From Eledone cirrhosa (taxonomy: Eukaryota), in assembly GCA_964016885.1 (NCBI GenBank), contig OZ024742.1, positions 133,920,001-133,984,000 of the forward strand: 64,000 bases of DNA. Reading direction: 5' to 3'. How positions within the stretch are numbered: the first letter of the stretch is position 1; the number at the start of each line of letters is the position of its first letter. The notes beneath the pieces were generated by a model, which saw only the letters and a program-made list of their open reading frames with translations, had not been told where the DNA came from and ran no database searches. Of this stretch, positions 62,737 through 62,819 are shown in pieces. A program made the translations under genes and the position numbers.

Positions 62737-62739
<3 letters not shown>

Positions 62740-62819
62740 AGATAAATCTACCAAGAGTTTACGGTAGTGTCCAATCCGTATGAAGAACTCAATTATTCAT
62801 TATTTTTTAAATATTTTAT
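62737..62819. mobile_element. 83-bp two-ended mini-insertion of PLE family 1 in (TA)n
   Basis: 62737-62793 = 28341-28397 (reverse complement of the long 3' end). 62793-62819 matches 34628-34654 at 25/27 (short 3' end). Confidence 0.85.

Follow-up and report, generated by a model that had tools for sequence, protein, structure and literature searches.

An 83-bp insertion lies at positions 62737-62819 of the window, the whole 64,000-nucleotide stretch of Eledone cirrhosa DNA analysed here. It is flanked on both sides by (TA)n tracts (62706-62737 and 62817-62838 according to TRF, the target tract proper being 62706-62736 on the left and 62820-62838 on the right). The insertion consists of two 5'-truncated end fragments of a Penelope-like element, joined head-to-head inside (TA)n. 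The first arm of 57 nt (62737-62793, minus strand in element sense) ends at End 2, the 3' end of the element's tail. It is the reverse complement of the End 2 terminus at 34733-34789 with 57/57 identity and equals the internal pLTR copy at 28341-28397. The second arm of 27 nt (62793-62819, plus strand) ends at End 1 and matches it at 25/27 positions (34628-34654; minus-strand copies at 21424-21450 and 28476-28502); one of the two differences from the large element is a common family allele. At the joint the arms share a single T (57+27-1=83). On the RNA the inverted fragments are separated by a gap of 78 nt and represent non-overlapping parts; with arms too short to overlap the insertion is not a palindrome, and the hammerhead is absent from it. 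The junction homology of 1 nt is at chance level, as at least 1 nt is found at 48% of random breakpoints, and a target-site duplication is unreadable because the flanks are (TA)n. This arrangement of tracts and arms is the one given in the original prediction, which also placed the insertion about 28 kb from the large element; the measured separation is 27.9 kb. The AT-rich 27-nt match is above background. Allowing up to three mismatches, the End 1 27-mer has four sites in the window (the insertion and the three copies in the element), 0/100 dinucleotide shuffles match, and the nearest among the 98,146 non-element 27-mers of the window differs at seven positions.

The large element (21424-34791) is a Penelope-like retroelement. 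Its full-length arm (21424-28935, minus strand) comprises pLTR, leader, ORF and a microsatellite-rich 3' UTR of ~4.3 kb and stops at End 1 against (TA)n at 21314-21423. The inverted, 5'-truncated arm (28947-34791, plus strand) is 135 nt longer and ends at End 2, likewise against (TA)n; the 135 nt between End 1 and End 2 (34655-34789, plus strand) are the tail. An internal pLTR of 597 nt (28339-28935, minus strand), which comprises the hammerhead as well as End 1 (28476) and End 2 (28341) and continues into the leader, repeats the 3' end of the element at 596/597 positions and forms a partial tandem with it. The unit (21424-28475) measures ~7.05 kb, and the cDNAs of the two arms would be 7.5 and 5.8 kb long. 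The 3' UTR (21424-25745, 30219-34654) is mostly (CA/TA)-type microsatellite.

The arms of the large element differ by one substitution in each unique block (683, 1728 and 671 nt) and in microsatellite lengths. The copy is intact and, with 3 substitutions in 3,082 non-repeat arm positions, very young. At the head-to-head junction (28917-28946) there is a templated 14-nt duplication, re-primed at a 3-nt homology. Four runs placed on 27900-28946 contain 0 reads spanning this junction. The palindrome fits better with a real young insertion than with a fold-back read artefact, because of its asymmetry, the arm-to-arm differences and the templated junction duplication. It had been proposed that the 83-bp insertion argues against the large palindrome being just an assembly artefact; by itself it is no proof, and the case is carried by these three features.

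The intact ORF (25745-28237, minus strand; 830 codons stop-to-stop, first Met at 28186) encodes, by motif, a reverse transcriptase (RT; DKT, YRDD), a CxCx5C linker and, C-terminally, an endonuclease of GIY-YIG type (EN; VY...YIG). Among 57 homologues, DKT.N occurs in 39/57 and ADKG in 0/57. Pfam gave nothing significant for the ORF. The Hydra clade of Penelope-like elements is described as having DKT in place of DKG, RxRW(K/R), a CxCx5C linker, CxxC and CxH around the E and N of a C-terminal GIY-YIG endonuclease, no CCHH, canonical hammerheads and insertion into (TA)n (PMC8557442). The Eledone element resembles this clade in DKT (residue 123), RVRWR (43, the RWR variant of RWK), CNCRNKANC (681), CRLC (779) and CNH (807), in its putative canonical hammerhead and in its target, with (TA)n at all four element termini in the window. 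The interval between VY and YIG is free of CxxC; two Cys eight residues apart and HxH follow. Judged by these motifs, the parent is an EN+ Penelope-like element of Hydra type. Supplementary rows for the clade include an octopus family, Hydra-1_Obim, and Penelope-13_HM (PMC8557442), at the 5' end of which an inverted, 5'-truncated copy is listed. Hydra elements are generally short (<3 kb; PMC8557442), whereas the Eledone unit of ~7 kb is well above those listed; the size is a tendency of the clade and no diagnostic character.

The window is a sequence of animal type, rich in microsatellites, and further inserts and repeats are found in it. The (TA)n tract of the 83-bp insertion harbours a second (TA)n-flanked insert of 207 bp (62504-62710) with inverted arms (62596-62710, 89% identity) and a one-sided extension of ~89 nt whose last letters before (TA)n are CTACA, like those of End 2. 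Homology of this insert to the tail of the Eledone family was rejected, 159/500 shuffles being as good; it possibly represents another family with a similarly long one-sided tail. Two TA-flanked sequences (63232-63410 and 63488-63740), each with a hammerhead-like core (CUGAUGA...GAAA), probably represent termini of further Penelope-like families. Another repeat family is present as three short fragments (15162-15200, 15370-15387, 15629-15667), which lie near (TA)n tracts in both orientations and with differing end points. Decayed LINE-type clusters with endonuclease and RT frames, 60-90% alike and arranged in tandem and inverted, occupy ~2400-13500 and 50500-61000.

End 1, End 2 and joints across the family

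Four of 23 runs were placed on 27900-28946, two as contigs (X1 and X5, the latter from another organism, organism B) and two as RAD reads (X21, X22). End 2 is visible in the reads as loose ends at 28339 with a (TA)n consensus (672/8331 reads in X21, 600/7794 in X22). For End 1, a contig of X5 (depth 106) starts exactly at 28476 and is overlapped over ~30 nt by a tail contig of depth 43. From these depths we infer that the step at 28476 is the graph signature of a terminus in roughly six in ten such copies. In X1 the summed depth across End 1 changes from 151k to 265k to 538k, and the window itself contains two End 1 termini. End 1 is absent among the loose ends listed for X21 and X22; these RAD runs are uninformative on it, because the libraries were cut by MluCI, whose site at 28505 leaves most fragments short of End 1. 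Taken together, these data support End 1 and End 2 as fixed termini of the family and not chance truncations. To this extent the view that the sites are no accidental truncations is supported, as both recur in reads or contigs. Begins and ends at 28336, 28505-28508, 28574-28580, 28615, 28711 and 28739 were discarded as termini, since they coincide with NsiI or MluCI sites of the RAD libraries. The 19-nt pattern of End 2 gave seven matches in metagenome contigs and four in prokaryote genomes, all 11 by chance, with none extending beyond 27 nt and none next to (TA)n.

Short terminal copies dominate the family and vastly outnumber ORF-bearing ones. Compared with the ORF, the tail bin is 13.5x and 15x deeper in reads and 144x deeper in summed contig depth, a value which is no copy number. 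Moreover, 84-85% of the placed reads continue into other sequence.

The runs also bear on the independence of the 83-bp insertion, which has two differences from the large element, at 28486 and 28489 in the pLTR. The A at 28489 of the insertion is carried by 544/939 reads in X21 and 635/1030 in X22 and makes up 37% of the contig depth at this site in X1 and all of it in X5, but occurs in 0/3 copies of the large element. The insertion thus carries a common family allele that the large element lacks; it derives from another source copy and is a separate event, as had been claimed.

Nine joints are listed for these runs. Four of these are opposite-strand joints (28396/28567, 28475/28601, 28672/28673 and 28681/28682), all found in both X21 and X22 and none at a restriction site. 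In 28475/28601 the short side measures 24 nt, as does the interval to the NsiI site; the joint is therefore head-to-head, and one of its arms begins at the End 1 boundary. That boundary is the point at which an End 2 cDNA would halt if a single RNA were twin-primed; the joint represents one locus, and an identical picture would result if an older copy had been hit at End 1. The joint of the 83-bp insertion (28397/28502 in pLTR coordinates) is absent among the nine listed, from runs placed on 27900-28946. In the four runs, no read or contig outside the window combines both ends in a single insertion, and each of the listed joints fixes the end of at most one arm. The pairing of End 1 with End 2 is documented twice, in the 83-bp insertion and in the large element, both in the window.

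A putative type I hammerhead (34446-34600, plus strand) was recognised by inspection and folding, with a perfect 10-bp stem I, a CUGAAGA core, a long stem II, GAAA and a palindromic loop III; Rfam gave 0 matches at gathering score. The predicted cut after 34590 (pLTR position 28540) precedes End 1 by 64 nt and End 2 by 199 nt, which accounts for the arm lengths of 64 and 199 nt at which drop-offs had been predicted. Such drop-offs were not seen. There is no cluster at 28540 among the 16 listed of 35, and the bin spanning the cut (28530-28564) is deeper than the End-side bin (906k versus 538k in X1, 262 versus 153 in X5) and has the maximal depth in X1; the resolution is 35 nt per bin, the profile is blurred by family variants, and the End-side bin may be lowered by a 9-nt insertion allele at 28500. 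PAc, the Poseidon element of Anolis studied in vitro, likewise has no ends at the hammerhead cut site in the account considered here (PMC11167929). Near 28700 (28668-28705) depth drops ~2-4 fold (239k to 65k in X1, 220 to 102 in X5). The perfect fold-back joints 28672/28673 and 28681/28682 are situated at the 5' edge of the hammerhead (28684) and not at its cut site. In reads, deletions of 84-86 nt (pLTR 28565-28654) remove the loop of the long stem II, and the 9-nt insertion allele is present in about half of the reads. The family comprises several subfamilies with shorter hammerheads. The stretch from End 1 to the leader folds no better than shuffles (z -0.03); a fold with z -5.9 was set aside, as it spans the (TA)n flank and the stem II hairpin.

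Origin of the insertion

The 83-bp insertion is probably the product of a single insertion, in which both nicked strands of (TA)n primed reverse transcription at the two fixed start sites of the element. The GIY-YIG endonuclease would nick both (TA)n strands, and priming by one target 3' end would take place at End 2, by the other at End 1, which lies 135 nt further upstream on the RNA. As UA or UAU follows or ends both sites, a pairing of 2-3 nt with the target would be possible. The cDNAs would then halt at 57 and 27 nt and be end-joined at the 1-nt overlap. The arms represent RNA segments without overlap, so that a single RNA would be enough (twin priming); an origin from two (dual priming) would fit equally. 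The large element would result from the same reaction with long cDNAs (7.5 and 5.8 kb). Both of its arms copy the same 5.7 kb, and therefore a single monomeric RNA would be insufficient unless strands were displaced; it would take a second RNA, an RNA that is circular or has several units, or strand displacement.

Double priming is suggested by the arm matches and (TA)n flanks, by the two 3' ends, which both face outward onto (TA)n, by the recurrence of both termini, by the dominance of short terminal copies and by the four opposite-strand joints common to X21 and X22. The PAc protein cleaves and extends both strands in vitro, initiates reverse transcription at two positions within the RNA that correspond to the tail ends, and is predicted to form a dimer (PMC11167929). 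PAc belongs to another clade than the Eledone family, its sites are ~30-40 nt apart, and for primer and RNA start site the work reports no homology (PMC11167929). In another clade, de novo insertions are normally very short, with a median length of 128 bp (PMC9977147). The proposal of an abortive double-primed event hence stands as the likeliest origin; as an exclusive explanation it does not, for the same sequence could arise from deletion of a longer End 2...End 1 insertion or from two stacked insertions, no mark in the insertion separates primary truncation from later deletion, and the 1-nt junction homology does not decide between these origins. A stricter version, programmed twin priming, seems doubtful but deserves mention: in Hydra-type Penelope elements a dimeric RT-endonuclease would use, for the two target strands, two hard-wired sites spaced by 135 nt on a single RNA, as a rule inverted insertions would combine both ends, and the End 2 cDNA would often stop at End 1.

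It is unlikely that the insertion is what remained after a long inverted End 2...End 1 insertion, comparable to that at 21-35 kb, had lost its palindromic body by deletion. Its outer ends are indeed those of the large element in mirror order, and relative to the base of the would-be stem one breakpoint falls 78 nt to the outside and the other 27 nt to the inside, with an imperfect TATT repeat close to both. Palindrome-driven deletions tend to fall near the stem base. The exact junction homology is nevertheless just 1 nt, and the large excess of short terminal copies over ORF-bearing ones is what primary truncation predicts. Moreover, the parent of a deleted copy would still have had End 1 and End 2, so that the two-site rule survives this reading.

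Slightly less credible again is a single priming event followed by fold-back or template switch, with self-priming on the antisense template or cDNA and a second end produced by endonuclease resolution. The arms of the 83-bp insertion are not complementary to each other and cannot be joined by fold-back, even though a scheme of this type was proposed earlier for Penelope-like elements (PMC3846280) and both read runs contain perfect fold-back joints (at 28672/3 and 28681/2), which appear in organism B as a loose end. The tail has been considered most likely to come from EN-mediated resolution (PMC8557442), but a stagger of 135 nt is long for a single endonuclease cut, and tail ends were mapped in vitro as RT start sites (PMC11167929).

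We regard as improbable that two separate 5'-truncated insertions were stacked in opposite orientations in one (TA)n tract, with loss of the intervening TA. Zero TA units remain between the arms, as opposed to the (TA)13 that separates the neighbouring insert, and both 3' ends point outward, an orientation shared with the large element and with published insertions. In favour of stacking, the tract is a hotspot, with the unrelated 207-bp insert only 27 nt to the left, (TA)n is self-complementary, and the family has very many short copies. An assembly or chance artefact, i.e. a spurious arrangement with an AT-rich background 27-mer, is hardly credible: the junction is absent from the four placed runs, which cover 27900-28946, but neither shuffles nor background positions approach the 27-mer match, which stops exactly at End 1 and bears a genuine family allele.

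Relation to known Penelope-like elements

Published features of Penelope-like elements include inverted copies, a tail on one side only, a pair of RT start sites and the extension of both strands (PMC8557442, PMC11167929). The standard Penelope unit is described as a pLTR with an adjacent inverted 5'-truncated copy and a one-sided tail of 30-40 bp (PMC8557442, PMC3846280, PMC2377424). The Eledone family shares with it the head-to-head arms and the outward 3' ends, and has a one-sided extension that is probably the tail. It differs in the length of this extension (135 nt versus 30-40), and the 83-bp insertion in addition has no overlapping arms, palindrome or hammerhead. PAc resembles the Eledone family in that RT starts at two internal sites, which lie downstream of the hammerhead and agree with genomic ends, and in that its target is AT-rich (PMC11167929). 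The PAc sites are adjacent and inside the ORF, whereas those of the Eledone family are 135 nt apart and upstream of the ORF; the PAc work, in the part considered here, assigns no site to either strand of an inverted insertion (PMC11167929).

A further parallel is twin or dual priming of L1, where priming on opposite strands yields two inverted 5'-truncated pieces with little junction homology (PMC2837659). In L1 the internal site is given by chance homology to the target and one arm has poly(A), whereas both Eledone sites are fixed family positions and poly(A) is lacking; for L1, twin and dual priming are described as indistinguishable from such products (PMC2837659). A retrozyme model, which is concerned with tandem hammerhead repeats (10.64898/2026.07.22.740005), is not applicable to an insertion that has no hammerhead. 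Priming at one site per strand was not found stated for Penelope-like elements in the literature searched, which lies mostly outside subscription papers, older Penelope work among them; within the same scope, no paper on twin priming in Penelope was listed. The architecture is thus already known for Penelope-like elements, and the 83-bp insertion is an ordinary product of a Hydra-type element, the differences (135-nt tail, 7-kb unit) being quantitative.

How Penelope-like elements build tandem and inverted insertions is stated to be an open question (PMC8557442, PMC11167929). In kind, the locus offers nothing novel. The family lends itself to testing, however, with its intact and very young copy, its two termini spaced by 135 nt and its abundance of short copies; twin priming, dual priming and fold-back could be told apart by the arm lengths and by the way ends are paired. 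If programmed twin priming were true, the spacing of 135 nt would make the question of one or two RNAs countable from arm lengths, which tails of 30-40 nt hardly allow.
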